Virus genome (UHGV): UHGV-1373571
Origin: a virus
Strand: one strand, 5' to 3'
DNA: 47,808 nucleotides
Shown: positions 396 through 17,555 of the stretch, piece by piece
Position numbering within the stretch: the first letter of the stretch is position 1
Layout: the number at the start of each line of letters is the position of its first letter
Program-made: the position numbers and the translations under genes
The notes under the pieces: generated by a model
What the model was told of the DNA's origin: nothing
The model's database searches: none
What the model saw: only the letters and a program-made list of their open reading frames with translations

Positions 396-569
396 CCATG
401 AAAGAGTGGTGCGCACCGTAACTACAACAAGTATGTCCGCAGTTATGGTGCGATACATTGCGGATTGAGTAAACGGCCAGTGTTCATTTCTGGATAGCTG
501 CTCGCAGATTTTGGCATCTCAGGAGATGGCGCAGATGGAACCTGACCCTGGAAGAGTTCGCGTAATGGC

Positions 570-1730: not shown

Positions 1731-1979
1731 GGGTAAAATTCCGGCGGGTAAAGTTGTTTTACTCGTTTTTTACCCGCCAAAAGGTGTGGCTGTCAACGGC
1801 CTGAGGCGAACTACTGCGAACAGGGATTTCATGAGAGGCTTGATACTGGCGGGATTCGGCGAACTAGAGCGGATTGCGGCGAACTCAAAATAAGTGTCCC
1901 CTGCATACATCTAACCTGATATGCAGGGGTTTGAAATGGATGATGTTTTTTACGTGTGAAAAATATTTTACTCGTTACT

Positions 1980-2180
1980 TTACCCATCGGAGCGGGACAG
2001 GAGCTTTTCTCTGAACTTGCAGTGGTCACTATATAACCACCTCGCTCTGCCGTGGATGAGTTTGGCTTTGGGGAGATCGCCGGACTTAATCCGGTCGTAT
2101 ATGAAGGTTTTTCCAAAGCCAGTATCCGCCATGATGAATTTCAGATCAACAAGGCTATCTGGTTGCATCTCATGTTTCAT
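1980..2180 (-). CDS. AlpA-family DNA-binding protein / excisionase
   Basis: 66 aa. The MerR-like HTH of the AlpA family (FIMADTGFGKTFIYDRIKSGDLPKAKLIHGRARWLYSDHCKFRE) sits immediately downstream of int on the same strand. Confidence 0.75.
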   Translation of the reverse strand: MKHEMQPDSLVDLKFIMADTGFGKTFIYDRIKSGDLPKAKLIHGRARWLYSDHCKFREKLLSRSDG

Positions 2181-2220
2181 CTTCCACCTCTCGTTACAGC
2201 CAAATGCTTACCACGTTCTT

Positions 2221-2880
2221 TCATTGGATCCCCCTCTGTTTGCGCATTAGCTCAAACTCTTCAAGAACCTTTTCCTTTGCTTTCTGGTAAGCCTCGGAAG
2301 CCTCTTCTTCTGTATCGTAATCGCCAAGATAGATGCCTTTATAATTAACAGTTATCCTTGCTGACCACCTACCTGATGGACGTTTAGTTACACCAACAAA
2401 TCGAGATTTGCTTCCCTTCACTTTCCTTCTGTTCAACTGCTGTTCAGATGGTGTGGCCCAACGACAATTTTCCGGTGAATACCCCTTTTCGTTATCGATG
2501 CGGTCCAGCGTAAACCCATCAGGACGAGAGCCCATATCAGCGTAAAACGAGCTGAAGTCATGCCATTGATGGCACACTGTTATTCCTCGCCCGCCATAAT
2601 CCTTGTATCTCTTATCGTTAGGGTTTTCGCATCTCTGTATCATGAGATCCCAAATTTTATATTCTGAAGAACTCGACAAGCCGTGAGTCTTTTTTGCTTC
2701 AACCTTCAAGCACCCACATGATTTTGTGTGACCACTTTTAACGTAAGAAAGGCGAATAATTTTAGTTCTACCGCAATCACAGTAAAATTTACCCTTATAA
2801 ACCCCTTTTTCATCTTTGGTGAAAGGCTCAATTAGCGTGAGCATGCCCACCTTTTCGCCAACATCAAACTTCACGCGCAT
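2221..2880 (-). CDS. HNH homing-endonuclease-like protein with AP2 DNA-binding domain
   Basis: 219 aa. HNH_3-type motif (GYSPENCRWATPSEQQLNRR) followed by an AP2 domain (SRFVGVTKRPSGRWSARITVNYKGIYLGDYDTEEEASEAY). Cys-rich N-terminus. Confidence 0.7.
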   Translation of the reverse strand: MRVKFDVGEKVGMLTLIEPFTKDEKGVYKGKFYCDCGRTKIIRLSYVKSGHTKSCGCLKVEAKKTHGLSSSSEYKIWDLMIQRCENPNDKRYKDYGGRGITVCHQWHDFSSFYADMGSRPDGFTLDRIDNEKGYSPENCRWATPSEQQLNRRKVKGSKSRFVGVTKRPSGRWSARITVNYKGIYLGDYDTEEEASEAYQKAKEKVLEEFELMRKQRGIQ

Positions 2881-2881
2881 A

Positions 2882-3100
2882 TCATTTGCCCTCCTGTTTC
2901 AACCGTAGTTCGATATCACTGGCGCAACTAACACAGCGCTGACAACCCGCCACCAGTTCCCGGCGCCGCTCGGGTATCTCTTCCCCACAGTCGCGGCAGT
3001 GAGTAGCTGAAACTGCATTGTGGTTGATGCGCATGTTCTGGATGGTCATTTCAAGCCGGCGCTCTGCCAGCTCGTTGGCCTGATCGATGATTTCTGGCAT
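2882..3100 (-). CDS. TraR/DksA-family C4 zinc-finger protein
   Basis: 72 aa, C-x2-C-x17-C-x2-C (CRDCGEEIPERRRELVAGCQRCVSC), typical phage TraR-like. Confidence 0.65.
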   Translation of the reverse strand: MPEIIDQANELAERRLEMTIQNMRINHNAVSATHCRDCGEEIPERRRELVAGCQRCVSCASDIELRLKQEGK

Positions 3101-3101
3101 G

Positions 3102-3320
3102 TCAGCGCTCCTTTATCTTTCCGTTCAAAATGCCGATTTCCACATAGAGATGGCTTGGCGTTAACCCAAGCTGCCTTATCAGCGGCATGCATCCGTTGAG
3201 GATCGGTCGTGATATCTCGTCGCAACTTAAAGCGGGAGATGACCTCCGCTTTGCCTTAACCTCATCGTTAGCCCTGCGCGCGATGCTTCTGAGCGCATTT
3301 TTCTTTTCTTCTGGCGTCAT
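3102..3320 (-). CDS. hypothetical protein
   Basis: 72-aa ORF, coupled (overlapping stop/start) to its neighbours in the leftward operon. Confidence 0.4.
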   Translation of the reverse strand: MTPEEKKNALRSIARRANDEVKAKRRSSPALSCDEISRPILNGCMPLIRQLGLTPSHLYVEIGILNGKIKER

Positions 3321-4486
3321 GCGACCCCCATATAAGCGCGAATGAAAGCCGCGGCTGCCTGTGCGTTTATAGCGTTGCCGTACCCTTTCAGGCGGCCGAC
3401 GCGGTTGCTGCTTGCCACTCTTGCCACCCCGGGCTCGACTCGTCCCATGCGTGCGGCAGCCCCATCAACCAGCGGGAATGTGCCGGGTTCAACTGGACGC
3501 CATTTGCCATCTCGACAAAAGAGCCAGTCCGCATCTCGCCAAAAACCGTTAACCTCAAGGGGCCGGTAATCCCCGCAAAGTCCTGCAGACGCTGCTGGGT
3601 CTTGCTCCCGTCCTGTCGATGCATGTTCATGGCCGCATCCACTGACGGCGATCGAGTGTTGCTCGTTGTCGGTGTTGGCCAACCCGTCATGAAAGCCTGG
3701 CGCGGCAGCTGGTCCAGTCGCTCCTTCCCGTCCCGCTGCGCCGTCATTCCCGCTGAGTCCTTCCAGTCGCGCGACGTTGGAGTTACCCAGCCCGCCATTC
3801 TGGCCGCCCCGCCCAATGTTGTTCCCCTGTTTGGCGCATTCGCGGCTGCTGCCTGTCCTGCAACCTGGTTGTTGTCGATCGTGGTTGGCGTCGGCCAGCC
3901 GGACATCATCGCCGCCGTTTGAATATTCATTCCGCCCTGGCGCCCGGACGTTCCCGCGCCGGTCACTGATGACGCTGTTGGCGTTGGCCACCCAGTAGGC
4001 CCGCTCTCTGATGTGCGGCGCACCGACGCCCGCTGACGTAAACGGCACAAGTCCGAAGGCGTATCCCACTCCTTCCAGGTCTGCTTGTACAAGGTCGAAC
4101 CATGTGTTTGCGTTACCGCTTGCAACCTGTTCGCCAAAGACATGCTGAGGTCTGCGCTCGCTGATGAGATGGAAGAAGTGGGGCCAAAGGTGCCGCTCGT
4201 CAGCAAACCCATCTCCTTTGCCTGCCGCGCTGAAAGGCTGGCACGGGCAGGAGCCAGTCCAGACCGGGCGATCGTCAGGCCATCCTGCGAGGCGGAGGGA
4301 ATGGGACCAGACGCCGATACCGGCGAAAAAGTGGCACTGGGTAAATCCTTTGAGGTCGTCAGGTGTGACATCTTCAATACTCCGTTCGTCAACTTCGCCC
4401 GGGGCGATATGCCCGTCAGCTATGAGGTTACGCAGCCACTGCGCCGCGAATGGGTCGATCTCGTTGTAGTAAGCTGCCGCTCTCAT
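3317..4486 (-). CDS. DNA (cytosine-5)-methyltransferase with an expanded low-complexity variable region
   Basis: 389 aa. Canonical C5-MTase motifs in order: I FAGIGVW, IV PCQPFSAAGK (catalytic Cys), VI FGEQV (ENV variant), VIII RERAYWVA, X GYGNAI at the C-terminus. About 150 aa of Gly/Asn/Arg-rich sequence sits where the target-recognition domain is expected. Confidence 0.8.
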   Translation of the reverse strand: MRAAAYYNEIDPFAAQWLRNLIADGHIAPGEVDERSIEDVTPDDLKGFTQCHFFAGIGVWSHSLRLAGWPDDRPVWTGSCPCQPFSAAGKGDGFADERHLWPHFFHLISERRPQHVFGEQVASGNANTWFDLVQADLEGVGYAFGLVPFTSAGVGAPHIRERAYWVANANSVISDRRGNVRAPGRNEYSNGGDDVRLADANHDRQQPGCRTGSSRECAKQGNNIGRGGQNGGLGNSNVARLEGLSGNDGAAGREGATGPAAAPGFHDGLANTDNEQHSIAVSGCGHEHASTGREQDPAASAGLCGDYRPLEVNGFWRDADWLFCRDGKWRPVEPGTFPLVDGAAARMGRVEPGVARVASSNRVGRLKGYGNAINAQAAAAFIRAYMGVA

Positions 4487-5139
4487 GCTGCCTCCGTCTT
4501 CACAACTTCAATGGCGCAGCCGGGGATCAACTCAACGGAAGCGGTGGCGCACTGGTTGCCCCAGTGACTCCAGCCTGGCGCTGCGCTTCGGCTGAAAAGC
4601 TCAATCCGCGGCACGTCGCCGTAGAGCAGTTCTAGGCGGTGCCTAACTTCCCACGGTTTCTCGCTGTGCGCGCCGAGCGGGCTGTAGACCACCTGCTTAA
4701 TGCCGGCGTGTTTGCGCTCCAGCCCGGTGCCGCGGGTGGCGATTAGTACGTCTTCGGTGTTGGCGCGGGTGTGGTTGCCACCGTTCATGCGTGTCTCGGC
4801 ATTCAGCAGGTCGAGGAAGTCGTAAAAGTCGGCTAACTCTCCCTCTGCCAGGGCCTTGGTAATGCGCAGTTCGGCCAGCTGATTCAACTTCACCCAGGTG
4901 AAACCCTTCATTGTGCGCACCGTAAAGCCCCAGGCTTCGGCCAACTCGATCGCCTCCTGGTTGTGGGTGCCGGTGTACCACATCGCCAGCACAGCGTTAT
5001 CCGCGGCGAGCTCCCACACCGGGAGCCGCTTCATATCGAGCAGGCTCATGGTGGGGTAGTGATCGACGGCGGCGCCGTTGCTTATCGTGTTCCCGTAAGA
5101 CCAGGCTGGGTCGGCATAGATAAGTGAGTAGCGGTTCAT
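4483..5139 (-). CDS. DNA N6-adenine methyltransferase, MT-A70 family (phage Dam-like)
   Basis: 218 aa; the N-terminal IYADPAWSY motif is the DPPW-type catalytic motif of MT-A70/phage Dam methylases. Confidence 0.8.
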   Translation of the reverse strand: MNRYSLIYADPAWSYGNTISNGAAVDHYPTMSLLDMKRLPVWELAADNAVLAMWYTGTHNQEAIELAEAWGFTVRTMKGFTWVKLNQLAELRITKALAEGELADFYDFLDLLNAETRMNGGNHTRANTEDVLIATRGTGLERKHAGIKQVVYSPLGAHSEKPWEVRHRLELLYGDVPRIELFSRSAAPGWSHWGNQCATASVELIPGCAIEVVKTEAA

Positions 5140-5570
5140 AGGACTGACTCCATTTCATCGATATAGAGGCCAGATGCGATAAGCCGGCGGCGCCGGGCCG
5201 CTTTATCAATACATTTCTGGCGGTTGCCAGAGGCGGCCTGAGCTATCGAGCGCTTAGTGAACAGGCGAGTTTTACCCTGCGGGGTAATGACCTTTGGCCT
5301 TGTGATCAGGTCAAAGGTGCGATCGCATATGCCATTCTCGTTGAGCCAGGTTTCCGATGCGATCAGCTGCGCAATGCGGCCTTCTCCCTTGGTTATGCCG
5401 TTCGCTACTCGGTTAAATTCGACAAGCGTCACGCCGAACTTCTCCGCTATTTCGCTGCCCGTTACAGGGCGGCCGCGAGTCTGAATCATCCAGATCACGC
5501 GCTCGCGAAGGCCGGAGAATTTCCCTGCTTTGCCGGGCCTGCGGTAAAATGGAGTGCGTTTCATTTCCAC
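5136..5570 (-). CDS. hypothetical phage protein (basic, possible DNA-binding)
   Basis: 144-aa ORF translationally coupled between exo and the methylase genes. Confidence 0.5.
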
Positions 5571-6241
5571 TGCTCCCCGAAGGTAAAGCCGATCTCCGCC
5601 AGCGATTCATCCATCTTGCTGATGAAATCCGGCACCATTTCGTTGAAGACGCTCATGTATTTGTCGTCGCGCTCTACAACCACGTGGTGAATGCCTTCTC
5701 GCTTCATGCGAGGGTCATAATTCGCGAAATACCAGGCATCCTTTCCGGTTACCCACATGCTGAATTGCACCTGGGCCATGTAGGCGGATTTGATAGCCTC
5801 GAAGCCGCCAAGCCGGAATTTCATGAAGTCGCGAGAGGTGAAAGGGCACTTCAGCTCAAGGCCGCGACCATCACTGCACAGGCCATCAGGTGAGCAGGCG
5901 GTGCGCATACCTTCGTCACGGAAAAGGATCGGCGACTCTGTTACCTTCACGTCGGTGGTGAACTCAAACAGGGTGCGAGCGTCGGCCTCATACTGTTTCC
6001 CCCAGGCCAGCGCCTTGGCGTTAACTTCCGGCGCCACGCCGGTGCACACTTCGGCAAGGAGCGTAAGAAAGTAGGACATCTTCATATCAGTCCATTTCTT
6101 ACCTGCCTTGGGCTTAGAAATGACGTTGTGAACTTCCGAGGCAGTTATCACGCCCAGGCGTAAGCGGTGCCAGGATTCGTCTCCCTGTTCAACGCGGGTA
6201 ACGTCAATGCCAGTTCGCTCGAGGATAATTTCTGGTGTCAT
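5561..6241 (-). CDS. exo: lambda-type 5'-3' exonuclease (Red alpha, YqaJ-like viral recombinase domain)
   Basis: 226 aa, near-colinear with phage lambda Exo as recalled (MTPDIILQRTGIDV...[15 protein letters not shown]...[33 protein letters not shown]). Same length as lambda Exo. Confidence 0.9.
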
Positions 6242-7083
6242 GCTGCCACCTGCGCTTTTTTCTGGAGGAAGCTAAAGCCTTTCTGCGCTTCTTCTTCGGT
6301 GAGCTGTGATGCCTGGAAAATGTCACGCTTGAAGATGTTGCTGCACAGAGGCAGGAAGTCCTGTTCCCAGTCCTTATTCAGGGACGTCAGGAGGTCGGTA
6401 ATTGCCTGCAACGTTTCCTCACTGGCCACCAGGGGGAGTGCCTCTGTCGTGCTGCGCGGCGTTACGTCACGCGCATCCACTTCCAGCGTTTTACCTTCCA
6501 TCTCTTCGGCAGTGGGCTGCTGGCCAATTTCAGGCCACGCCTTACGCAGAGCCTGAGCCTCGGCACACTTCGCCAACTGGCCGTAAGGGCGCTTTTTCCA
6601 CATTGCGTTTGGCGCGGTAGTGTCGCGGCCGGCGGTGGCATAGTTCTCAACCCAGTATTCTTTCGCGCTGAATTCGACGATTTCCCCGCTCGGCATGCGC
6701 TTGCTGACCGTGTACTTGCACCATTGAGGTACGGTCACTTCAATGCCGGTAAGCGTCAGAGTGACGTCCGGGCCGAACTCTGGTTCTTTTGCGCCAGCGT
6801 AATCACCGGAGCGATCGGCCTGAATCCGATAAAGCCCGATGCCAGGCATAACCACATCGCGCCACTCGCTTTTCCCCGTCTTCGAGTCCTTAACGCTCAT
6901 CGGCACCAGATGAACGGGCTTCAGAAGCGGATCGAGGTTTCTGGCCCGGCAGTAGTCCAGCGCCATCATCACCGACTCATCCTTGGCGCCAGGATAAATA
7001 CTGTTCTTGAGGGCGCTCCATGTAGCGCCGTCAATTCCTCGCTCAGCAAGAGAGCTGGCTGTAATCACAAGTTCGTTAGCCAT
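6238..7083 (-). CDS. bet: single-strand annealing protein, RecT/Red-beta family
   Basis: 281 aa. The C-terminus ([25 protein letters not shown]...[10 protein letters not shown]) parallels the lambda Bet C-terminus. Coupled to exo. Confidence 0.8.
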
Positions 7084-7098
7084 TGCTATTCCCCAAAG

Positions 7099-7383
7099 TT
7101 AAAACGGGCAGCCGGTGCGGTGATCCCAGTCGTATTCCGCCTGGGCGTAAGCTACTGCAGAGATGAGATCGTTATATGCCTCGCCAGCTGCATCGCTGCG
7201 GAGGCCTTCGTATGGGCTTTTGTCCATAGGTACAGAGAAGCGGAACAGGCCTGACGGCTCTTTCGGAAGGGCGTCGATAATTTCCTGCGCCCGATCGTCA
7301 ATCCACTTTTGCTTTTCTTCGGTGAGCGACTGTTCAGCCCATTTCCGTTCTTCGATAGCGTCGTATGCGCGGTATGCGTTCAT
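7099..7383 (-). CDS. gam: Gam-like RecBCD inhibitor (short GamS-like form)
   Basis: 94 aa beginning MNAYRAYDAIEERKWAEQ...EEKQK, similar to the internal-start region of lambda Gam ([30 protein letters not shown]). It is in the position expected next to bet. Confidence 0.5.
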   Translation of the reverse strand: MNAYRAYDAIEERKWAEQSLTEEKQKWIDDRAQEIIDALPKEPSGLFRFSVPMDKSPYEGLRSDAAGEAYNDLISAVAYAQAEYDWDHRTGCPF

Positions 7384-7463
7384 AGCTCGCTCCTGAAATT
7401 TGGTTGTAAGAATCCCGGCACCGTATTGGCTGCCTGATAGATCTGTTAAATTCTTCGGTTCGA

Positions 7464-7670
7464 TTACCGGCTGAGACCTTGTCCCAACCCGTTCAGATAA
7501 ACTTCAACCAGCAAGTCGGTTGTGTAAGTCCGCTCAATCCCGCGATGCAGGTACAGGCGACCGCGTTTATTTGCTGATGCTGTCCAGGTGCTTTCCCGAT
7601 GCTTAACGAGCATCCCTGGGAGAACGGCGCCGCGGTTAACGGTCTGTGTCCCGTAATGATGACTAACCAT
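7464..7670 (-). CDS. hypothetical small basic protein
   Basis: 68-aa ORF with a GGGGGTG SD-like sequence upstream. The alternative 96-aa frame 7493..7783 is judged less likely. Confidence 0.3.
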   Translation of the reverse strand: MVSHHYGTQTVNRGAVLPGMLVKHRESTWTASANKRGRLYLHRGIERTYTTDLLVEVYLNGLGQGLSR

Positions 7671-7769
7671 TGAACACCCCCGTAGCGTGCAGAATTTTGA
7701 TAATCAACGCTGTCCAGATAACGCCGCAGATCAGCAGGCAGTAAATCAGTGAACGAATGCCGTTTCTGC

Positions 7770-7886
7770 TCATGCTGAACCACCAGGCATCAGGCATAAC
7801 GCGCTTGCTATCAGTACGCATACGACGATGGCGAATGCGTGTGCCAGAAACTTAAACCACTCAGTTTTATCTTCTTCGCGGATCAT
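7770..7886 (-). CDS. hypothetical small membrane protein, first gene of the leftward operon
   Basis: 38-aa ORF (MIREEDKTEWFKFLAHAFAIVVCVLIASALCLMPGGSA) with one hydrophobic helix and an AAGGGTGA RBS. Not in the ORF track (under 60 aa). Confidence 0.3.
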   Translation of the reverse strand: MIREEDKTEWFKFLAHAFAIVVCVLIASALCLMPGGSA

Positions 7887-7969
7887 CTCTTCACCCTTGC
7901 CTTAAAGCCGGCCAGCTGAGCGTTGTTGCTAATGACCGGCGTTGCCGGTGTTGTTTGGATGAGATAATA

Positions 7970-8008
7970 ATGTACTAATGGTTCATCATTGTAAAGTACC
8001 AAAAGTAC
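7970..8008. promoter_or_regulatory. candidate left operator (OL) sites for the cI-like repressor, with the PL region
   Basis: Two 15-bp dyad sites, TGTACTAATGGTTCA (7970-7984) and AGTACCAAAAGTACA (7994-8008), spaced 24 bp apart. They match the TG(A/T)AC-N5-GT(T/A)CA sites found between cI and cro. Confidence 0.4.
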
Positions 8009-8252
8009 ATTTTTGATTTATGGATAGTTCAGATTGAGGTAACTTAATGAACTTTAAGTATATTTATTTATGGTCTGTTTGGTTAAGAGAATGGAAATGG
8101 TGTTGGCACTGGATGTGTTGATGCTGCGGGAAGAGTGGGGCAGTAAAAACCCGGCGCGGTGGCCGGGGTGTAAAGGTGGTCAGTGTGGCTTAGGATGAAT
8201 CGCCACGGGTTTAATAGACACCTCAGAGTCATTTAAGATGACTTAAAGAGAG

Positions 8253-8537
8253 GTGCCCATGAGCGGTAAGCGTTATCCCGAAGAGTTTAAAATTGAAGCG
8301 GTAAAACAGGTTGTTGATCGCGGCCATTCTGTTTCCAGCGTGGCAACACGTCTCGGTATCACCACCCACAGTCTTTATGCCTGGATAAAGGCATATGGCC
8401 CGGATTCCTCAACCAATAAAGTCCAGTCAGACGCTCAGGCTGAGATCCGACGCCTCCAGAAAGAGCTGAAGCGGGTTACCGACGAACGGGACATATTAAA
8501 AAAAGCCGCGGCGTACTTCGCAAAGCTGTCCGACTGA
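8253..8537 (+). CDS. IS3-family transposase OrfA (HTH)
   Basis: 94 aa with an HTH and leucine-zipper-like C-terminus (RRLQKELKRVTDERDILKKAAAYFAK). Confidence 0.9.
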   Translation: MPMSGKRYPEEFKIEAVKQVVDRGHSVSSVATRLGITTHSLYAWIKAYGPDSSTNKVQSDAQAEIRRLQKELKRVTDERDILKKAAAYFAKLSD

Positions 8538-8593
8538 GGTACGCCTTTATCCGTGACAACACCCATTGCTGGCCTGTCCGACTGCTTTGTCGG

Positions 8594-9406
8594 GTGCTGG
8601 ATGTGCATCCGAGTGGTTTTTACGCCTGGCTTCAGCAGCCGGATTCACGGCGGCATCATGCTGACCTGAGACTGACGGGGCTGATAAAGCAGTTCTGGCT
8701 GGAGTCGGGTTGCGTTTATGGTTATCGCAAGATCCACCTCGACCTGCGGGATACCGGACAACAGTGCGGAGTTAACCGTGTCTGGCGACTGATGAAGCGT
8801 GCCGGGATAAGGGCTCAGGTCGGGTACCGTAGCCCACGGGCACGTAAGGGTGAAACCAGCATCGTGACGCCCAACAGGCTCCAGCGGCAGTTCAACCCGG
8901 AAGCACCGGATGAGCGTTGGGTAACGGACATCACCTACATCCGGACTCACGAAGGCTGGCTGTATCTGGCTGTGGTTGTTGACCTGTTCTCGCGCAAAGT
9001 TATTGGCTGGTCAATGCAGCCCCGGATGACAAAGGATATTGTCCTGAATGCACTTCTGATGGCCGTGTGGCGACGTAATCCTCAAAAGCAGGTGCTGGTT
9101 CATTCTGATCAAGGCAGTCAGTACACAAGCTATGAGTGGCAGTCGTTCCTGAAATCACACGGGCTGGAGGGCAGTATGAGCCGTCGCGGTAACTGTCATG
9201 ACAACGCAGTCGCAGAAAGTTTTTTCCAGTTACTGAAACGTGAACGGATAAAGAAAAAGATCTACGGAACGCGAGAAGAAGCTCGCGGTGATATTTTTGA
9301 TTACATCGAAATGTTTTATAACAGTAAGCGTCGGCATGGTTCGAGTGATCATATGCCACCAACTGAATACGAAAAACAATATTATCAGCGGCTCGGAAGT
9401 GTCTAG
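8594..9406 (+). CDS. IS3-family transposase OrfB (DDE integrase core), expressed as an OrfAB fusion by a -1 frameshift
   Basis: 270 aa from the first ATG. The frame stays open upstream to the slippery site at 8498-8505 (fusion reads ...YAFIRDNTHCWPVRLLCRVLDVHPSGFYAW). DDE residues lie in WVTDITYIRT..., ...VHSDQGSQY... and ...NAVAES.... Confidence 0.9.
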   Translation: MLDVHPSGFYAWLQQPDSRRHHADLRLTGLIKQFWLESGCVYGYRKIHLDLRDTGQQCGVNRVWRLMKRAGIRAQVGYRSPRARKGETSIVTPNRLQRQFNPEAPDERWVTDITYIRTHEGWLYLAVVVDLFSRKVIGWSMQPRMTKDIVLNALLMAVWRRNPQKQVLVHSDQGSQYTSYEWQSFLKSHGLEGSMSRRGNCHDNAVAESFFQLLKRERIKKKIYGTREEARGDIFDYIEMFYNSKRRHGSSDHMPPTEYEKQYYQRLGSV

Positions 9407-10332
9407 ATTATCTGTGGCGATTCAGGAAGTTCTGGTTTCTTAACTGCCTCAACAATTCTTAATGCATCCACTGCTGAAATCGCTCCATCGGCGGACTTCT
9501 TAGATAAATAATCTCCAAGACGATTAGGAATGTATTCATTTTGCATCCACCGTCTAAACAACCCTAATGCGTCATCCGGGTAGATCCAGGCGTCAACAGG
9601 GCCTGCACGATGTTGAGGAAACCAGTCTGGATAAACATGTGGCGACTTTGTGCGCTGGCCATACTTTTCGTCACAACCATTGGCGACCCAGTATTTTGAC
9701 CACATCGTGCCAACACTTATATCTGGAATTGCCGAGGGACCAAAGTCAAAGTTACCTTTAACCATTTTTAATGAAAGATCTGCCATTTCTCTAAATACAG
9801 AAAAATATCCAAATGGAACCTGATCATTCATTAATAGTCTTTCATGGAAGCACTCAAGAGCGCCCCGCTGTGGGTTCTCTGGGTCAATCCCTACACTTAA
9901 GTATATGAATCTACGCAGTTGAGAACCCGCTAACTTACGAAAGTTAGATAAAGCTACTTCACGACTACCCTGAGTAGCTTCAAATGCGTAATACTCAAGA
10001 AAGGCCATGCAGACAACATCAGGGAATGCGTTTGTCTCTGTGCCTTGAATTACTGTCTTATGAAATAATCGGTTGAGATTTAATCCTTGCTCTCTAAGCT
10101 TTTGGTCTATGAATTGGCCTCTTGGTTTCGTCCTTTCATCGTCCCAGTTTGAGGCGAGCCGAAGGAGAGCTGCATGGTCCACGCCACATAATCTAGCCAA
10201 ACCTCGCTGAGTTAAAAATGGAGACCCATCATTCATAACGCCCATTTGTATGCCATCAACATCGGCTTCTTTTATCGGGTATAGTTCCATTTGTAGCTGG
10301 TGACCAGATAATGCCAAAGGTAAGTTATCCAT
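9403..10332 (-). CDS. KilA-N/Bro-N-like domain protein in the rexAB position downstream of cI; candidate BstA-like abortive-infection protein; the last codons are supplied by the IS end
   Basis: 309 aa. The N-terminal DGIQMGVMNDGSPFLTQRGLARLCGVDHAALLRL fits the KilA-N/Bro-N G..WF.A.D.A..LG pattern. AAGGAA RBS. Same strand as cI and 78 bp downstream of it. The C-terminal ESPQII is read from the IS right end. Confidence 0.5.
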   Translation of the reverse strand: MDNLPLALSGHQLQMELYPIKEADVDGIQMGVMNDGSPFLTQRGLARLCGVDHAALLRLASNWDDERTKPRGQFIDQKLREQGLNLNRLFHKTVIQGTETNAFPDVVCMAFLEYYAFEATQGSREVALSNFRKLAGSQLRRFIYLSVGIDPENPQRGALECFHERLLMNDQVPFGYFSVFREMADLSLKMVKGNFDFGPSAIPDISVGTMWSKYWVANGCDEKYGQRTKSPHVYPDWFPQHRAGPVDAWIYPDDALGLFRRWMQNEYIPNRLGDYLSKKSADGAISAVDALRIVEAVKKPELPESPQII

Positions 10333-10410
10333 TTGAATTCCTTAATTATTATGGTGATGACCACTTTGTTGTGTCAAATCGCCAAAGCACCTAATCAGGC
10401 CACTTGCTGG

Positions 10411-11133
10411 CTACCCATGCTTCCTGTACGTCTGCGGCATGCTTCCGATCACCTTGCCGAACACGAACACCCTGTTCATCTCGTCTTTCTCGATAGGGTC
10501 CCACGCTGCATAGCTTTTGTTATCTGAGATAACCAGCAGCTTATCCTTCATCTTCTGAAGGCGCTTAACGTGTGCAGTATCGTCGTACAGGAAGGCGTAA
10601 ATTCCATCACCGTCAAACTTCGTTACACTGATATCGACGAACAGCAGATCACCTGGCTCGATCGTACCAGACATACTATCGCCACGGACGTTTATGATCC
10701 TGATGTTCTCCGCTTTACGCCCATCGAACATGTGATTCGCATCGGCTGGCGCATACTCAACAGAGCGGAGGATTTCAACGAACTCTTGGTTTACCACTCC
10801 AGGTCCTGCGCTGACGGCGATATCCAAGAGGTCAACCCTAAAGACGTCTTTCCGATTAGTTGCCGCCCCAGGCTCAATACCGTCCTCATCCGCATCGCCA
10901 AGTAGGTACGATGCAGACGTGCCTATGTGGGAAGCTAAAGCCTGGAGTGTCCCCCGCCTTGGTATTGACTCCCCGTTAAACCATTTGCTCACGGCCTTCG
11001 GTGTCAACTTCATCCTCTTGGCGATCTCAGCCTGGCGACCATGTGGCATCAATCCAGCTTTATCGCAGGCCAGCGCTAGCCTCAGAGAAAATTCTTTTCG
11101 CGCTCTTTCTTCGTGAACCATGTGTTCAATCAT
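10411..11133 (-). CDS. cI: cI-like prophage repressor (HTH_XRE + S24 LexA-like peptidase domain)
   Basis: 240 aa. N-terminal HTH (QAEIAKRMKLTPKAVSKWFNGESIPRRGTLQALASHIGTSASYL). C-terminal S24 domain with a Ser-Lys dyad (VRGDSMSGTIEPGDLLFVD ... HVKRLQ). Divergent from a cro-like gene. Confidence 0.85.
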   Translation of the reverse strand: MIEHMVHEERARKEFSLRLALACDKAGLMPHGRQAEIAKRMKLTPKAVSKWFNGESIPRRGTLQALASHIGTSASYLLGDADEDGIEPGAATNRKDVFRVDLLDIAVSAGPGVVNQEFVEILRSVEYAPADANHMFDGRKAENIRIINVRGDSMSGTIEPGDLLFVDISVTKFDGDGIYAFLYDDTAHVKRLQKMKDKLLVISDNKSYAAWDPIEKDEMNRVFVFGKVIGSMPQTYRKHG

Positions 11134-11185
11134 AATATCACTTGCGTGAACTATCAGTTCCGACTTAATATGTACTTACAGTTCA
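11114..11185. promoter_or_regulatory. candidate right operator (OR1-3) region, with divergent PRM/PR
   Basis: Three dyad sites: TGAACCATGTGTTCA (11114-11128), TGAACTATCAGTTCC (11147-11161), TGTACTTACAGTTCA (11171-11185). A candidate PR has -35 TTGCGT (11142-47) and -10 TAATAT (11163-68), with site 2 lying between them. Confidence 0.4.
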
Positions 11186-11201
11186 TTATTGAGGGTTAAA
11201 C

Positions 11202-11429
11202 ATGGCACCTAACAGTCTTGGCGAAATCATCAAAAAGATTCGCGTTCCTGTTGTAGCTAAAGCCTGTGGTTGCTCTCCGCGCGCAATTTACAAGTGGATT
11301 GCCAACGGAAGCCTGCCGAGAACGGACTACACCGACGAGACCAATTACGCAGAAAAAATCGCTCTCGCTTCTGGCGGCCAGTTTACTGCTGCGCAGATCC
11401 GGGAAGTCAGCAAGCCTAAAGCCGCCTGA
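11202..11429 (+). CDS. cro: Cro-like HTH regulator
   Basis: 75 aa, HTH (VAKACGCSPRAIYKWIANGSLP), GAGGG RBS. First gene of the rightward operon, opposite cI. Confidence 0.7.
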   Translation: MAPNSLGEIIKKIRVPVVAKACGCSPRAIYKWIANGSLPRTDYTDETNYAEKIALASGGQFTAAQIREVSKPKAA

Positions 11430-11469
11430 CTGGCGGCCATTCCAAACAACACCAGAGGAAGTATCACAA

Positions 11470-11691
11470 ATGGAGAGTTCAACGGCACGCAACAAAACAG
11501 AGGCTCTCAGAATAGAGAGCTGGTTGCACAACCGGATAGCCGAGATCGGCACTACAACCATCGCAAACGTGGCCGGAGTGAATAAGTCGACGGTGAGTCG
11601 CTGGCGGGAAAGTCTGCTGCCGAACATGTCGCTGCTGCTGGCCATCCTGATTTCTAACAGGCCAGGAGAGAAAGGTGACTTTGAAGCATGA
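11470..11691 (+). CDS. cII: CII-like transcriptional activator
   Basis: 73 aa. MESSTARNKTEALRIESWLHNRIAEIGTTTIANVAGVNKSTVSRWRESLLPNMSLLLAIL is colinear with lambda CII (NKRNEALRIESALLNKIAMLGTEKTAEAVGVDKSQISRWKRDWIPKFSMLLAVL). GGAGG-like RBS. The upstream part of track ORF 11266..11691 overlaps cro and is rejected. Confidence 0.7.
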   Translation: MESSTARNKTEALRIESWLHNRIAEIGTTTIANVAGVNKSTVSRWRESLLPNMSLLLAILISNRPGEKGDFEA

Positions 11692-11776
11692 GTGGGAACA
11701 GAAAGGCGAAAGCCGCAGTGCGGGAACACTAACGGCTTTCTACGCGAATTAACTGGATCAATTCACAGGAGTAATT

Positions 11777-11923
11777 ATGCCTAAGAGCAACAGATTTTAC
11801 CAGGCACAAACACACAAAAATGTTACCCGCGACCGCTTCATTCGCTCTGTTAACCCGGTGGTTGGCATGAAAATGCGCGCCATCCTGGAAGAGCTGAAAC
11901 GGAAGGAGGAAGGCCGTGAGTAG
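11777..11923 (+). CDS. hypothetical small basic protein
   Basis: 48-aa ORF with a GGAG RBS, directly upstream of and overlapping the start of the O-like gene. Confidence 0.3.
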   Translation: MPKSNRFYQAQTHKNVTRDRFIRSVNPVVGMKMRAILEELKRKEEGRE

Positions 11924-13001
11924 CCTAGCAAAAGTAATACCTTTCAGACCGTCTGTAACGGTCGTGGAGCGTCAGGTGGCAGATATCGATGATGGGTATA
12001 CCCGCATCGCTAACGAGCTGCTGGAAGCGGTTATGGCTGCTGATTTAACGGCTCGCCAGCTGAAGGTCGTTCTGGCGGTGATCCGCAAAACTTACGGGTT
12101 CGGGAAAAAGTTTGACCGCATTACCAATACCCAGATCGCAGAAATGACCGGCATTCACCATACGCATGTCTGCAAGGCCAAGAACGAGATGATTGCAATG
12201 AACATCATCGTTACAAATGGCCTGGCGATCGGGGTGAATAAGGTGATTTCTGACTGGAATTTCAGCATTAGCCAAAATGGCAAATCATTAGCCGAAACAG
12301 CTAATGAAACATTAGCCAAGTCAGCTAATACCCATAAGCCAACTCAGCTAAACACAAAAGAAACTATTCAAAAGAAAGAAAGAAAAGATCCCCCTAAATC
12401 CCCCAAGGGGGAAAACTCACTCGCTCAGGAAGTGATGGATTACTTCAACGAGCTAACGGGTAGTCGTTGTGCTGCGCTGGCACCTTTTGAGAAAGCTCTC
12501 TCCACGGTGAAGAGCAAAGACCAGTGCTACACCGCTGAAGAGCTGAAGCTGGTTATCCGCTGGGCCCATGTGAACTGGGGTCACAGCTTCAAGCCAGAGA
12601 ACCTGTGTCGTATGACCCGATTTGATGGATACCTGTCAGACGCCCTGATATGGGCAGATGGTCATGGAAGCAACCCGAAAGCCTGTCCGCACGAAGAGAT
12701 CATCAAGCTCTGGAATGAAAAATTCCCTTCGAAGGCCGTCTCACTGCATGAGTGGAACCGCCGCCGTCCGGCCTATCGAGACCTGGAAGCTGTGTGGAAC
12801 GGCAAAACCACCCAGGGCAACTGGCGAGAACTGAAGCACATGGGAATGGCCTTCGAGCTGATTAGCAAGTCTTCCCTGTTCGTCACCAGAGGCGATCAGC
12901 CATGGCTGACTCTCGACTGGATACTGAATCCGAAGAACTGGGGATCTGTCTACGAGCAGGCCATCAACGAGCACCGTGAGCGCAAGGGAGTCAAAGCATG
13001 A
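11916..13001 (+). CDS. replication initiator, lambda O-like (N-terminal iteron-binding domain)
   Basis: 361 aa, GTG start. The N-terminal domain resembles replication protein O (ARQLKVVLAVIRKTYGFGKKFDRITNTQIAEMTG). The coding region contains iterons and an A-rich tract (see ori feature). Followed by a helicase gene. Confidence 0.8.
   Translation: MSSLAKVIPFRPSVTVVERQVADIDDGYTRIANELLEAVMAADLTARQLKVVLAVIRKTYGFGKKFDRITNTQIAEMTGIHHTHVCKAKNEMIAMNIIVTNGLAIGVNKVISDWNFSISQNGKSLAETANETLAKSANTHKPTQLNTKETIQKKERKDPPKSPKGENSLAQEVMDYFNELTGSRCAALAPFEKALSTVKSKDQCYTAEELKLVIRWAHVNWGHSFKPENLCRMTRFDGYLSDALIWADGHGSNPKACPHEEIIKLWNEKFPSKAVSLHEWNRRRPAYRDLEAVWNGKTTQGNWRELKHMGMAFELISKSSLFVTRGDQPWLTLDWILNPKNWGSVYEQAINEHRERKGVKA
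12266..12420. promoter_or_regulatory. putative replication origin: four ~21-24-bp iterons plus an A-rich unwinding tract inside the O-like gene
   Basis: Direct repeats CATTAGCCAAAATGGCAAAT / CATTAGCCGAAACAGCTAATG / CATTAGCCAAGTCAGCTAATA / CATAAGCCAACTCAGCTAAAC (12266-12352). They are followed by ACACAAAAGAAACTATTCAAAAGAAAGAAAGAAAAGA and the palindrome TCCCCCAAGGGGGA. Confidence 0.6.
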
Positions 13002-14371
13002 GCCGTTTTATTGATTTATACGTTGAGCAGGCCGTCATTGGCGGAATAATGCTTGCAGCAGGTCGCGCAGATGGCGCCGACATGGCTACCGATGCGATTG
13101 AGGGGCTGACTGAGGACCACTTCACAGCAACGCCCCATAAAGTGGCTCTGCGGTCCTACAAACGCCTCAGCGAGTCCGGGGAGAAGATAGACCTGCTGAC
13201 GTTGACCAGCGACCTTGAACGGCTTGGCGCGCTGGAAAGTGCGGGGGGATTCGCTTACCTGGCTGAATGCAGCAAAAACACGCCATCGTTCGCTAACCTG
13301 GCCGCCTACTGCGAAAAGCTACGGGAAATGCACCTTGGACGTCGTATGACCCTAGCCCTACAGGTAGGGATACAGAAACTGTCCGAACCATCCAGTGAGG
13401 GTATCGCTGACATCATCGGCAACATACAGGCCGATATCTCCGGTATTGAGCACAGTGCGGACTACGGAACTGAACACATCACCACCGGGATCGACATGTC
13501 GTTAGAGGCCATCCAGTCGATTATTAGCGGCGATATCTGGAAGCACAAAACCGAGCTTGGCATGGCAACCATCGACAGCGCTTTTGGCGGGTTTAACAAC
13601 ACAGATTTCATCGTTGTTGGCGGTCGACCGGGCATGGGGAAAACCATGTTCAGCACCACCGTAACCGAGACAGTCGGCCTGAAAAACAAAAAGCCGGTGC
13701 TGTTCTTCAGTCTCGAGATGCCAGTGGAACAAATCTCTGAGCGAGTCGCTTTCCACCGGGCGCGGGTAAGCAAAGAAGATCTGCTGAGCAAGGTTAGCGG
13801 GAAAATGGACGAGGCATGGGGGAAGGTTAGTCACTGCATGAAGGAGTTCATCGACTCTCCGATCTACATCAACGATAAGCCGTCCCTAAGCGTTCACCAG
13901 GTGCGTGCGGAAGCGCGGCGTATGAGCAAGAAGTTGGGCGGACTGGGCGTGGTAATCGTCGATTATCTTCAGAAAATGCGGATGTCAGACCCGGAGAACA
14001 TGAACCGCAGCGTAGGGGAGATCGCCACTGGTCTGAAGAACCTGGCGAAAGAATTGCGTTGCCCGGTCATCGCTCTGGCCCAGTTGAACCGAAACCTGGA
14101 GCAGCGCGCTAATAAGCGTCCCGTTGCGGCAGACCTGCGAGAGTCTGGCGTTATTGAGCAGGAGGCAGATGTGATCTTCATGGTGTATCGGGATGAGAAG
14201 TACAACGAAAACACCGAACTGAAAGGCATCACCGAAATCATCTGTGTGAAGTCCCGCCATGCGCCGGGGGCAGAAAAGACCTACCACTTCAGCAGCCGCT
14301 ACTCAGGCCTGGACCCGGTAGATTTCACCTACAGCGGCCAGATGCAACAGGAGGCTGACTATGAGTGCTAA
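12998..14371 (+). CDS. replicative DNA helicase, DnaB family
   Basis: 457 aa. Walker A GGRPGMGKT, Walker B VVIVDYLQ, and a DnaB N-terminal domain. Confidence 0.9.
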   Translation: MSRFIDLYVEQAVIGGIMLAAGRADGADMATDAIEGLTEDHFTATPHKVALRSYKRLSESGEKIDLLTLTSDLERLGALESAGGFAYLAECSKNTPSFANLAAYCEKLREMHLGRRMTLALQVGIQKLSEPSSEGIADIIGNIQADISGIEHSADYGTEHITTGIDMSLEAIQSIISGDIWKHKTELGMATIDSAFGGFNNTDFIVVGGRPGMGKTMFSTTVTETVGLKNKKPVLFFSLEMPVEQISERVAFHRARVSKEDLLSKVSGKMDEAWGKVSHCMKEFIDSPIYINDKPSLSVHQVRAEARRMSKKLGGLGVVIVDYLQKMRMSDPENMNRSVGEIATGLKNLAKELRCPVIALAQLNRNLEQRANKRPVAADLRESGVIEQEADVIFMVYRDEKYNENTELKGITEIICVKSRHAPGAEKTYHFSSRYSGLDPVDFTYSGQMQQEADYEC

Positions 14372-14675
14372 GACGATGAAAGGCAAACAGGCAATTCTGC
14401 GTTATCTCGAAACGCACAGGACCTTTACCGCGAAGGATGTGGCCACAGAGTGCGGCATGACCATCAACTGCATCACGAAGAATGCGCTCGATCTGGAGCG
14501 GGCCCGCAAAATTGTCCGGGTGAGCAAGGCCTGGCGAACGGTGACTTATCGCCTGGCGACACCGGAAGAGCAGGCCGGAACCGCGCGCAACTGCACCAAC
14601 GGAATATTTCAGGAGTGCCGCAACAGTCCGGCGATGAAGCGGGTACTGGCTGTTTACGGGAGGACATCAGCATGA
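14361..14675 (+). CDS. hypothetical protein (possible winged-helix)
   Basis: 104-aa ORF overlapping the helicase stop. Confidence 0.5.
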   Translation: MSAKTMKGKQAILRYLETHRTFTAKDVATECGMTINCITKNALDLERARKIVRVSKAWRTVTYRLATPEEQAGTARNCTNGIFQECRNSPAMKRVLAVYGRTSA

Positions 14676-15127
14676 CTATCACACTACAGGCAGTAAACGA
14701 GCTCATCGCTTCCCTGGAGACCGCAGGCGAGCCGTCGATCAGAGAGCAGAAGTTCCTGAAGCTGGCGAAAGCGTACCAGCAGCTGGCGGCGGAGAATGTG
14801 GCGCTGAAGGACATCAACGCATGGTGCAAAACTGATGCATTCAAAAACATGTACCGGGAGTTTAAAACAGCAGAGTCTCTTGGTTGCTCAGATGTGGATT
14901 GCATGCATGATGCAATGCTTGTCGCAATTATGCATGCGCCGGAAACCCCGGCCACCGATCGCATCGTAGCCGGGATTAAGGCCGATGGGGTGGCGTTGGT
15001 TAAGTCTGCATTTGAGATGCATATCCAGTATGCATCCTGCTATCAGGATGAAATTGTTGGAATGGAATCAGCGATGAGCATTGCATGCCAAGTAGAGTCG
15101 CAGCTGCGCGAGGGGGCCGACAAATGA
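14672..15127 (+). CDS. hypothetical protein
   Basis: 151 aa from the ATG at 14672 with a GGGAGG RBS. The track ORF extends upstream to 14450 in-frame, but that part overlaps the previous gene. Confidence 0.5.
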   Translation: MTITLQAVNELIASLETAGEPSIREQKFLKLAKAYQQLAAENVALKDINAWCKTDAFKNMYREFKTAESLGCSDVDCMHDAMLVAIMHAPETPATDRIVAGIKADGVALVKSAFEMHIQYASCYQDEIVGMESAMSIACQVESQLREGADK

Positions 15128-15330
15128 GCGGCCGTATCCCTAACTTCGGCTGGAATCGCCTGAAACTGGCAAAGCTCACCTATGAGCAATTGGCGGAGCT
15201 TGAAGAACAAGTGAAGGCTGAGCATGCCTGCAAAAACGGCATTCACCTCTTCGACAAAGCCGGTCAGCGCAAACTCGATGCCCTTCGCTGGGCCGTATAC
15301 AACAAGCAGAAGGCGGAGCGAGCTGCATGA
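15124..15330 (+). CDS. hypothetical protein
   Basis: 68 aa from the ATG at 15124 (ATGA overlap with the previous stop). The track ORF begins at 15085. Confidence 0.4.
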   Translation: MSGRIPNFGWNRLKLAKLTYEQLAELEEQVKAEHACKNGIHLFDKAGQRKLDALRWAVYNKQKAERAA

Positions 15331-15875
15331 CTAATATCACCGAACTGGCGCAGCGTATGCGCACGGCAGCAGAGAAAGCCGGAGTCGAGCAGTGGGTTAA
15401 CAATCGCGGGGAGGTAAACACAGCCGATTATGAGGTTGATGGTGGCACGTATATCGACCACATTTGCGACTGTGAAATCGTCGGAACAGAAAGCCCGCGT
15501 GCAGAATTCATCGCCATGGCTAACCCTGCCAACGTCATCGACCTGGTAGAGGCGCTGGAGAAGGCGCAGCGCTACATCGAGGAGTTGCGGGAGTGGAATG
15601 CTGGTCTCGCGCAGGAGTCATGCGAACGTCAACAAAGAATATCCGAGCTATTGGAAGGAAAAGTAGGCAACGCTCTTCTTGAGCGTGAAAACCATCATGT
15701 TGAGCTGGTTGGGAAGTTGGCTGAGCGCATCGCCGAGCTGGAGTCCCGCACCGTCACCGTGAAGCTGCCGGAGTCATTCAGGTTGGCTAAATCATCGAGC
15801 GGATTAACTTACTACTACGCCGACGAGGTCGATGCAGCGCTTACCGCCGCTGGCATCAAGGTGGAGGCTGAGTGA
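15327..15875 (+). CDS. Ead/Ea22-like coiled-coil protein
   Basis: 182 aa, coiled-coil-rich. The family assignment is from memory of lambdoid nin-region Ea22-like proteins (...LTYYYADEVDAALTAAG...). Confidence 0.4.
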   Translation: MTNITELAQRMRTAAEKAGVEQWVNNRGEVNTADYEVDGGTYIDHICDCEIVGTESPRAEFIAMANPANVIDLVEALEKAQRYIEELREWNAGLAQESCERQQRISELLEGKVGNALLERENHHVELVGKLAERIAELESRTVTVKLPESFRLAKSSSGLTYYYADEVDAALTAAGIKVEAE

Positions 15876-16255
15876 TGGCACTGACCAAAAAACAGCGCGC
15901 AGAGCTGCGCATGAAATTTGGCGGCCGCTGCGCTTACTGTGGCTGTGAACTTGGCGATAAATGGCACGCTGATCACGTCGAAGCAGTACGAAGGAATATC
16001 AGTAACGGCTACGCAATGGACAGACCAGAAAACGACACGGTCAGCAACATGGTTCCGGCATGCATCTCCTGCAACCTGTTCAAAATGTGCAGCACGGTTG
16101 AGGACTTTCGCAATCGCATTGCAACTCAGGTTGATGTGACTCGCCGGGCATCGAGAAGCTACCGTACAGCGGAATCATTCGGCCTGGTTCAACCAACTAA
16201 CGCGCCGGTAGTGTTCTGGTTCGAAAAGTATCAGGCAGAAGGAGCCAACCAATGA
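15872..16255 (+). CDS. HNH endonuclease
   Basis: 127 aa. CxxC ... HADH ... N ... CxxCN pattern (GGRCAYCGCELGDKWHADHVEAV...VPACISCNLFK). Confidence 0.75.
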   Translation: MMALTKKQRAELRMKFGGRCAYCGCELGDKWHADHVEAVRRNISNGYAMDRPENDTVSNMVPACISCNLFKMCSTVEDFRNRIATQVDVTRRASRSYRTAESFGLVQPTNAPVVFWFEKYQAEGANQ

Positions 16256-16956
16256 CCAAATCAACCATAACCAAAGAGCGCCTGGAAGAAATTGTCAGCG
16301 ACCCAATGATTAATCAGGGTAGCGAGTTTGCGATGATGGCCCGCATGGCGCTGGCCGCAATGGACAGCGAGCCGGTGGCGTGGACATGGCACTATCGTGA
16401 GCAATGGCATGTCACAAACGATAAATGCCGGGCAGAATTTGTCGCAACAGATGGTGATGTGGCTGTACTGCCGCTCTATCGCCACGCGCAGCCGGTGCCG
16501 GTAGTGCCTGATGAATTGCTGAAGGAGTACCTTCGATTAGTGCAATGCATGCTATCGGATTATAGGGATGGTAATTACGGCAATGCACAGCGATGGATCA
16601 GGCACATAGCAAAAGCCTCCGATGATTTTGAGCGAAAGTACGGGCTTTCTCCATGGGAAATGGCTCGCAAGACCTGCCGCGCCGCCATGCTCGCAGCCGC
16701 CCCGCAGTCATCCGGCAGTGAACCGGCCACCGTGCCGGGTAAATGGATTCCGGTAAGCGAGCGCATGCCGGAAGTTGGCGTTAAGGTCTTGTGCTTCCCA
16801 GTAGAGGGTGAGCCGATTCATGCAGTATTCAATGGTCAGTTATGGCTACAGGATATTTCATGGAGTAATAGTGACGAGCCAATTGATAACGTCATAACTT
16901 GCAATGTAACCCACTGGATGCCGCTGCCGGCCGCCCCGCAGGAGTCAAAACCATGA
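16252..16956 (+). CDS. DUF551-domain phage protein
   Basis: 234 aa. The C-terminal KWIPVSERMPE...VTHWMPLPAAPQ matches the DUF551 signature (...W.P..E..P ... THWMPLPEPP). Confidence 0.6.
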   Translation: MTKSTITKERLEEIVSDPMINQGSEFAMMARMALAAMDSEPVAWTWHYREQWHVTNDKCRAEFVATDGDVAVLPLYRHAQPVPVVPDELLKEYLRLVQCMLSDYRDGNYGNAQRWIRHIAKASDDFERKYGLSPWEMARKTCRAAMLAAAPQSSGSEPATVPGKWIPVSERMPEVGVKVLCFPVEGEPIHAVFNGQLWLQDISWSNSDEPIDNVITCNVTHWMPLPAAPQESKP

Positions 16957-17040
16957 CAGAGGGAATGCGACAGCACCGCGCTTTCGTGCTGACTTGTTTG
17001 CTGGCAAGAGCTAAGCGCAGAACGGCGCAGGGGGTGAAAG

Positions 17041-17241
17041 ATGGACAAAATTGATTCTGATTTTATCGTCCTGCAGGAATTGGCTGCCCGCATTGAGCAA
17101 AACCCAAATAACGCTGGCTGGTACATGCACAGAGCCTACATGCTTGGTAGTGGTTGCAGCGCTGACGAGGCGCTTGTACATCCACCACGCGACTATTCCG
17201 GGCCAATGTTGCATGTGATTATTGGGAGTAAAGATGCCTAA
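17041..17241 (+). CDS. hypothetical protein
   Basis: 66-aa ORF in the nin-like region. Confidence 0.4.
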   Translation: MDKIDSDFIVLQELAARIEQNPNNAGWYMHRAYMLGSGCSADEALVHPPRDYSGPMLHVIIGSKDA

Positions 17242-17279
17242 ATCCCCCGCAGAACGCAAAGCCGCGCAGGAGATAACGA

Positions 17280-17510
17280 ATGGATAACAAACCAGAATGG
17301 CAGCAGCAGGCTGAGAAACTGGCTGAACTGTACGGAACAAGTTTCGTGACATTCAGGAACGGAAAGGAGCCTGAGTGTGTCGATCCCACGAAAGTGGTGC
17401 TTTCATTTGATGCCGAAAGAAAAAGGCGCTTTGACGAGTTCAAAGAAACCGTGCGGCAGGAGCACGCGATGGCATCCAGGCTGACCAGGCATCGCTTTAT
17501 ACCGAAATGA
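17280..17510 (+). CDS. hypothetical protein
   Basis: 76-aa ORF. Confidence 0.4.
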   Translation: MDNKPEWQQQAEKLAELYGTSFVTFRNGKEPECVDPTKVVLSFDAERKRRFDEFKETVRQEHAMASRLTRHRFIPK

Positions 17511-17528
17511 GGATGATAGTGGTATATA

Positions 17529-17555
17529 ATCCCCTCCACAGCAGAGGGGATTTTT
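17529..17555 (+). terminator. hairpin plus T-run in the nin-like region (candidate internal terminator)
   Basis: ATCCCCTC-CACAGCA-GAGGGGAT followed by TTTT, directly before the ATG at 17556. Preceded by TATATAAT. Confidence 0.35.

Follow-up and report, generated by a model that had tools for sequence, protein, structure and literature searches.

A BstA-family gene with an insertion sequence at its 3' end and a candidate start-straddling aba element in a Klebsiella pneumoniae prophage

The virus genome UHGV-1373571, a stretch of 47,808 nucleotides referred to here as the window, carries a gene of the BstA family, bstA, immediately downstream of a cI-type prophage repressor. The bstA open reading frame (ORF) is real and lies inside a lambdoid immunity region of a Klebsiella pneumoniae prophage, bracketed by sites of the left (OL) and right (OR) operator type; positions 1894-20332 of the window are 99.99% identical to the K. 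pneumoniae chromosome CP025087.1. The core of the region consists of the following features.

9403..10332, minus strand: bstA coding sequence as it stands, 309 amino acids, ATG start; residues 1-303 are native, residues 304-309 and the stop codon are derived from an insertion sequence (IS)
10411..11133, minus strand: cI-type prophage repressor, 240 amino acids, with HTH_3 and Peptidase_S24 domains (ORF call and Pfam)
8045..8060, minus strand: OL-side operator-like 16-mer TACTTAAAGTTCATTA
11173..11188, plus strand: OR-side operator-like 16-mer TACTTACAGTTCATTA, between cI and a cro-like gene

These coordinates agree with the first-pass annotation of the sequence, which had described a 309-residue ORF 78 bp downstream of a cI-like repressor on the same strand. 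Both genes lie on the minus strand, separated by that 78-bp gap, and no terminator-like site is present between cI and the bstA ORF. The placement of the ORF between OL and cI also holds, as the 47.8-kb window contains exactly two copies of the 16-mer TACTTAMAGTTCATTA, one on each side of cI-bstA, and these are read as OR- and OL-type operators. The G+C content of the bstA ORF (0.41-0.47) is below that of its flanks (0.53-0.59); a low G+C content relative to the surroundings is usual in accessory genes.

Assignment of the protein to the BstA family, proposed earlier from gene position, approximate size and a KilA-N-like N-terminus, is borne out by profile and homology searches. The PADLOC BstA model PDLC02356 aligns residues 10-301 to profile positions 4-291 of 292 (E=5.3e-119), and PHROG 6287, "BstA abortive infection system, replication inhibitor", matches the protein with E=2.1e-108. 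With tblastn, the BstA gene of the Salmonella phage BTP1 is recovered at 47.9% identity across 98% of the query length, along with an ORF in the immunity region of Escherichia coli phage CL707 at 42%. K. pneumoniae CIP 52.145 encodes a protein, available in part, that is identical at 289 of 290 residues; the end of a draft contig confines the comparison to 290 residues and cuts off the last 16. This partial protein falls in the 90% cluster of the window protein. All invariant columns of the 27- and 35-sequence family alignments are kept. The genomic position is likewise shared, with the gene right after cI on the same strand in the window, BTP1 and CL707; in the two latter phages, bstA comes directly after cI, with a terminator and then OL and the left promoter (PL) beyond it.

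The C-terminal region of about 200 residues, previously described as devoid of a recognisable motif, contains the BstA_C domain (PF26567). A precomputed match to this domain is recorded for the exact 309-residue protein in loci L077-L082, and for 120 of the 120 proteins listed from a database search that returned 423 relatives. A local Pfam scan of the window protein and 35 relatives left PF26567 unmatched, the model being apparently absent from that copy of Pfam, and brought up no other family of significance; NCBIfam gave no match. When the cI-bstA DNA was compared with a phage collection by megablast, only cI found counterparts (Klebsiella phages, 80-93%), with no near match to bstA. The gene is a member of the BstA family, essentially the experimentally tested BstA(Kp) allele, and is of a kind already known. 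An exact-sequence look-up found the identical 309-residue protein on 53 contigs under the label "hypothetical protein [Klebsiella pneumoniae]", and such entries can now be named as a defence gene with experimental backing.

Some genomes carry the gene with a misplaced start, giving NCBI products of 259 or 256 residues. Around the start, the minus strand contains three occurrences of CAAATG(G), 42-45 bp apart, at 10330-10335 (start codon), 10288-10293 (Met15) and about 10242-10248 (Met30). A related repeat at spacing 87, relating the start-codon context to IQMG codons, is the best repeat in several relatives; this recurrence may reflect only coding and ancestry.

BstA(Kp) was cloned from Kp52.145 (locus BN49_1470), the same strain as CIP 52.145, and defends Salmonella against phages (Owen et al. 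2021, PMC8585504). The published mechanism, shown for BstA(BTP1) and partly for BstA(Kp), involves constitutive production of the protein in the lysogen and its movement to replicating foreign phage DNA, where it blocks replication; lysis of the infected cell yields no progeny, and the population gains protection (PMC8585504). Self-immunity is provided by aba (anti-BstA), which in BTP1 is a 63-bp DNA element composed of 29 bp upstream and the first 34 bp of bstA, with terminal CCCGCC direct repeats that are each essential (PMC8585504). In DNA form, aba on the cognate prophage suppresses BstA; each BstA has its cognate aba, and the elements are not interchangeable (PMC8585504). Transfer of the bstA(Kp) locus and its upstream sequence to P22 makes this phage specifically immune to BstA(Kp) (PMC8585504). 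The way in which aba is recognised and made cognate was left unsettled by the original study (PMC8585504).

The window allele differs from this tested form at its 3' end, which is occupied by an insertion sequence.

8196..9424, plus strand: IS3-family insertion sequence, 1229 bp, with transposase genes and terminal inverted repeats
8253-8537, plus strand: IS orfA, IS3-family transposase gene
8594-9406, plus strand: IS orfB, IS3-family transposase gene
9403..9423, minus strand: IS-encoded tail of six codons (ESPQII) and a TAG stop, in place of KPH and TGA
9425..9427: right copy of the target-site duplication GGA, 3 bp
8193..8195: left copy of the target-site duplication GGA, 3 bp
8180..8192, minus strand: displaced native 3' end of bstA (T AAG CCA CAC TGA; ...KPH stop)
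8140..8167, minus strand: native Rho-independent terminator of the cI-bstA unit (CCCGGCCACCGCGCCGGG followed by TTTTT)

The terminal inverted repeats of the element are 33 nt long and imperfect (TGAATCGCCACGG... and ...CCGTGGCGATTCA), and full-length copies of the 1229-bp IS, 100% identical, are carried by K. pneumoniae plasmids. In silico removal of the IS together with one GGA copy yields a 306-residue protein ending in ...PELPKPH, and homologues P0001, P0003 and P0011 have the same C-terminus (...ELPKPH) as the reconstructed protein. The IS-deleted reconstruction aligns unbroken (97%) over the junction with the uninterrupted locus L001, and the native junction is found in L001 and in four IMG/VR contigs (L083-L085 and L121; matched stretch 99-100% identical). 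The IS junction is present in all six of the K. pneumoniae genome loci retrieved that encode the exact 309-residue protein. Insertion of the IS3-family element came later, at codon 303/304, and exchanged the last three residues for six encoded by the IS. The native terminator, also delimited as 8150-8167, now lies 1.2 kb from bstA, with the IS between them, and because of this displacement transcripts of cI-bstA are expected to run antisense into the IS.

Judged from its sequence, the IS-tagged protein is likely to be still active, because its conserved core is intact. Activity is further suggested by the family profile, since the hidden Markov model match ends at residue 301 and the extreme C-terminus varies within the family, and by a C-terminal superfolder green fluorescent protein (sfGFP) fusion of BstA(BTP1), which is much larger than the IS tail and has been reported to be functional. 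Three consequences of the insertion weigh against this expectation. The change from KPH to ESPQII alters the charge of the C-terminus, with the result that activity could fall or vanish; loss of the terminator with antisense read-through into the IS, and convergent transcription of bstA and the transposase genes, could each lower or abolish it. The corresponding alternative holds that bstA is a relic, inactivated or strongly attenuated by the IS, leaving the prophage without BstA defence. Insertion within the coding sequence, replacement of the native C-terminal residues and the 1.2-kb shift of the terminator all fit such a relic, and the IS allele occurs in a clonal-looking K. pneumoniae set, in which its persistence could be a matter of hitch-hiking. 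However, residues 1-303 are intact with every invariant column included, the family profile already stops short of the altered residues in a region that is naturally variable, the BTP1 protein reportedly tolerates the far larger sfGFP fusion, and the ORF is open in all six genomes sampled, making the relic explanation unlikely. One K. pneumoniae lineage carries the IS-tagged allele, and checking its activity would be worthwhile before defence-gene content is used to predict susceptibility to phage therapy.

The second subject of interest is the self-immunity signal. The first-pass annotation had proposed that an aba-like element be sought inside the gene; a candidate was indeed found, and it straddles the start codon rather than lying internally.

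10301..10363, minus strand: candidate aba element, 63 bp, bounded by direct repeats TGGTCA and spanning the ATG at 10332
10358-10363, minus strand: upstream TGGTCA copy, 31 bp before the ATG
10301-10306, minus strand: downstream TGGTCA copy, at +26, in codons 9-12 (Ser-Gly-His-Gln)
10348..10377, minus strand: putative sigma-70 promoter-like site TTGACA-18-CATAAT (11/12), in the cI-bstA spacer

The two TGGTCA copies are 57 bp apart, start to start, and belong to a longer form, TGGTCAYCA, represented in the window by TGGTCATCA and TGGTCACCA. Both are unchanged in Kp52.145 although 4 of the 78 spacer bases differ. The downstream copy sits in the N-terminal tail of the protein, where residues 1-15 are variable across the family and predicted to be disordered (predicted local distance difference test, pLDDT, 30-54); this variable tail is free to hold a DNA signal. 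On these grounds, together with the family comparison below, 10301-10363 is probably aba(Kp). Several points count against this assignment. The exact repeat is only 6 nt long (9 nt with one mismatch), and for a single locus taken on its own, chance is expected to place such a 6-mer pair at 55-58 bp in about 6% of cases. Among species-level relatives, the closest two (L004 and L005) have degenerate copies only. In addition, BstA foci persisted in the presence of high-copy aba (Owen et al. 2021, PMC8585504), and BstA has never been shown to bind aba directly.

As a further caveat, locus L086 (IMGVR_UViG_3300036791_000329), whose BstA is 94% identical to the window protein, keeps the in-gene GGTCACCAG, while its upstream sequence is unrelated and contains no matching repeat. 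The allele may be one that naturally lacks self-immunity, or its partner copy could lie elsewhere.

Comparison across the family places the window repeats in a wider pattern. A first set of 73 loci was made up of the window, four loci of annotated or metagenomic origin (BTP1 and CL707 among them), and loci drawn from one genome per species. Start-straddling exact repeats of at least 6 nt in this set peak at spacings of 56 bp (15 repeats) and 57 bp (14), with about one repeat at each of the other spacings. At 55-58 bp, 32 repeats made of 29 different words were counted, where control anchors placed in the same loci give an expectation of 4.35, related loci in these counts not being independent. 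The same spacing peak is seen in an independent second set of 79 IMG/VR loci. After pooling and dereplication, a 12-mer pair with at least 9 of 12 positions matching occurs at 56/57 bp in 55 of 122 distinct start regions, and at eight decoy spacings in 1-8 of 122. In several loci, both copies consist of the same locus-specific word, namely GGTCAGCA twice in L105, GGGCAGCA twice in L108, GATCGCCA twice in L008, CCCGCCA twice in BTP1-like loci and TGGTCA twice in the window lineage, and all of these words fit a common template of approximately TGNNCANCAC.

From these start-region comparisons it was concluded that the 56/57-bp paired-motif architecture is a property of the BstA family, as far as sequence can indicate. 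No description of the family-wide pattern was found in Owen et al. 2021 or in the later papers searched, and the literature search on the BstA/aba mechanism after that study yielded citations only. The data lean towards aba being a family-wide bipartite site, formed by two motifs of about 10 nt placed 56-57 bp apart across the start codon, with 10301-10363 as the aba(Kp) version. Since both copies share a locus-specific word in several loci, the variable bases of the repeats could set the specificity between a BstA protein and its cognate aba. If so, specificity could be reprogrammed by exchanging repeat words along with the N-terminal domain that matches them. The paired-motif rule also makes explicit predictions that can be probed by mutation at any BstA locus, that of the window among them.

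A different explanation of the TGGTCA repeats, and of the 56/57-bp pairs of the family, is that they form an autoregulatory operator of bstA or are a by-product of coding and ribosome binding, with aba(Kp) located elsewhere in the locus. The upstream copy overlaps the spacer and the -10 element of the 11/12 promoter-like site, whose predicted leader is about 10 nt long and whose -10 reads CACAAT in Kp52.145. This site could give bstA its own BstA-regulated promoter; whether it is the main bstA promoter is left undecided, because such a short leader would truncate the Shine-Dalgarno sequence. A non-immunity role is also in keeping with the coding nature of the downstream copy, which falls at a semi-conserved G-x-Q position, and with the published mapping of aba(Kp), which extends only to "the locus including upstream sequence". 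Against it, the homologous repeats of BTP1 are the mutationally defined essential part of aba, and coding constraint can explain neither the sharp 56/57-bp peak nor a non-coding upstream copy that tracks the in-gene copy in several loci, and the tail encoded there is variable and predicted to be disordered. Operator and immunity roles can, moreover, coexist. Location of aba(Kp) outside the paired repeats is accordingly given a low probability, and the start-straddling element is retained as the preferred candidate.

The N-terminal domain has been associated with the KilA-N fold. In the first-pass annotation, a KilA-N/Bro-N pattern was proposed on the basis of the peptide DGSPFLTQRGLARLCGVD, which corresponds to residues 35-52 of the 309-residue protein. 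This proposal is weakly supported at the level of the fold and unsupported by sequence profiles: fold searches reveal weak similarity of the N-terminal domain to KilA-N/APSES-like folds, and neither Pfam KilA-N nor Bro-N matches the window protein or 34 relatives even at E<=10, a result that speaks against the label. PADLOC additionally gives a secondary match (E=1e-9) between residues 35-144 and a defence-associated model named "HTH". Foldseek found no match below E=0.6 in the PDB, and a search of PDB sequences with a family-alignment profile gave none at E<=10, with no solved BstA structure found. In BstA(BTP1), a KilA-N-like domain was placed at residues 32-147 by means of HHpred (Owen et al. 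2021, PMC8585504). As a description of the fold, "KilA-N-like" is a reasonable label that sequence profiles cannot demonstrate, its sole bases being the fold-level similarity and this HHpred statement; residues of about 16-150 would form a KilA-N/APSES-like DNA-binding fold. That the protein is instead a KilA-N/Bro-type antirepressor or regulator without a defence role, an identity to which only the weak fold similarity of its N-terminal domain to antirepressor, Bro-N and KilA-N proteins points, has a negligible probability, as Pfam KilA-N, Bro-N, ANT and KilA-C are unmatched in all 35 family members, full-length similarity to BstA models and tested BstA proteins is very strong, the C-terminal domain is BstA_C, and the gene occupies a lysogen-expressed cI operon position rather than an early lytic operon.

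Taken as a whole, the locus is very probably best explained as a BstA(Kp)-like defence gene with its candidate aba element at 10301-10363 and a later IS insertion. By homology, bstA would be made in the lysogen together with cI or just downstream of it, and would act as a single-protein abortive-infection defence in which BstA gathers at replicating foreign phage DNA. It would block replication of the foreign phage, so that the infected cell still lyses and no progeny is released. BstA may recognise both TGGTCA(Y)CA sites through its N-terminal domain, with cognate specificity possibly set by the variable repeat bases; the C-terminal BstA_C domain has no known biochemistry. Lytic growth of the prophage itself would be spared by the cognate aba DNA element. 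A point that tempers this explanation is that the defence behaviour of the window allele is extrapolated from the BTP1 and Kp homologues. Beyond the naming of a known kind of gene, the residual interest lies in the IS-tagged allele and in the generalisable aba architecture, which makes BstA-aba recognition directly testable.

The remainder of the immunity region is of lambdoid type. Its right arm also contains O-type and DnaB-type replication genes, and its left arm contains RecT, YqaJ and an integrase.

11202-11429, right of cI: cro-like helix-turn-helix gene
11470-11691, right of cI: CII gene
3317-4486 and 4483-5139, both minus strand: adjacent orphan DNA methyltransferases of the early-left operon

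The methyltransferase pair, one a C5-cytosine enzyme (PF00145) and the other of the MT-A70 type, probably serves phage anti-restriction functions. The integrase end of the window (1-1893) is unlike that of L077. Two near-identical prophages with the same IS-tagged bstA, L078 and L079, carry an Erf/Arf/HNH recombination module at the position of about 5139-7429 in the window, in place of which the window and L077 have RecT/YqaJ/GamL; the recombination module has been exchanged within one prophage lineage. In two K. pneumoniae genomes, L081 and L082 (locus 9506/9536-9922), the cI preceding the IS-tagged bstA is called as 138 or 128 residues rather than 240 and consists of the Peptidase_S24 part only, which could be a truncation or a difference in gene calling. 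Minus-strand ORFs at 17873-19026, considered as morons, gave no matches and overlap an opposite-strand NinB gene called in L077, and they were set aside as spurious.

Among known systems, BstA(Kp) of Kp52.145 is the nearest counterpart. It has the same layout, with cI, a 78-bp gap and bstA, and its spacer is identical to that of the window at 74 of 78 bases, both TGGTCA copies included. One substitution separates the proteins (V288 in the window, A in 52.145), and immediately 3' of the upstream repeat the DNA differs at two bases (TCACCATAAT in the window, TCATCACAAT in 52.145). The window has ESPQII in place of KPH and a terminator displaced by the 1229-bp IS; the last 16 residues of the 52.145 protein lie beyond its contig end. 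BstA of BTP1 (st313-td / STMMW_03531) is a full-length homologue in the same place after cI, with a terminator behind it. Its start-straddling repeats lie at -28/+28, 56 bp apart, compared with -31/+26 and 57 bp in the window, and their word is CCCGCCA instead of TGGTCA; this difference is in line with the published cognate, non-interchangeable nature of aba elements. KilA-N/Bro-N antirepressors, in contrast, have C-terminal domains unrelated to the BstA_C domain of the window protein. RexAB of phage lambda occupies the same slot between cI and OL/PL, is expressed in the lysogen and leads to an abortive-infection outcome, a parallel discussed by Owen et al. (2021, PMC8585504), yet its proteins are unrelated and act through a membrane ion channel, whereas BstA inhibits phage DNA replication, which makes RexAB a positional analogue only.

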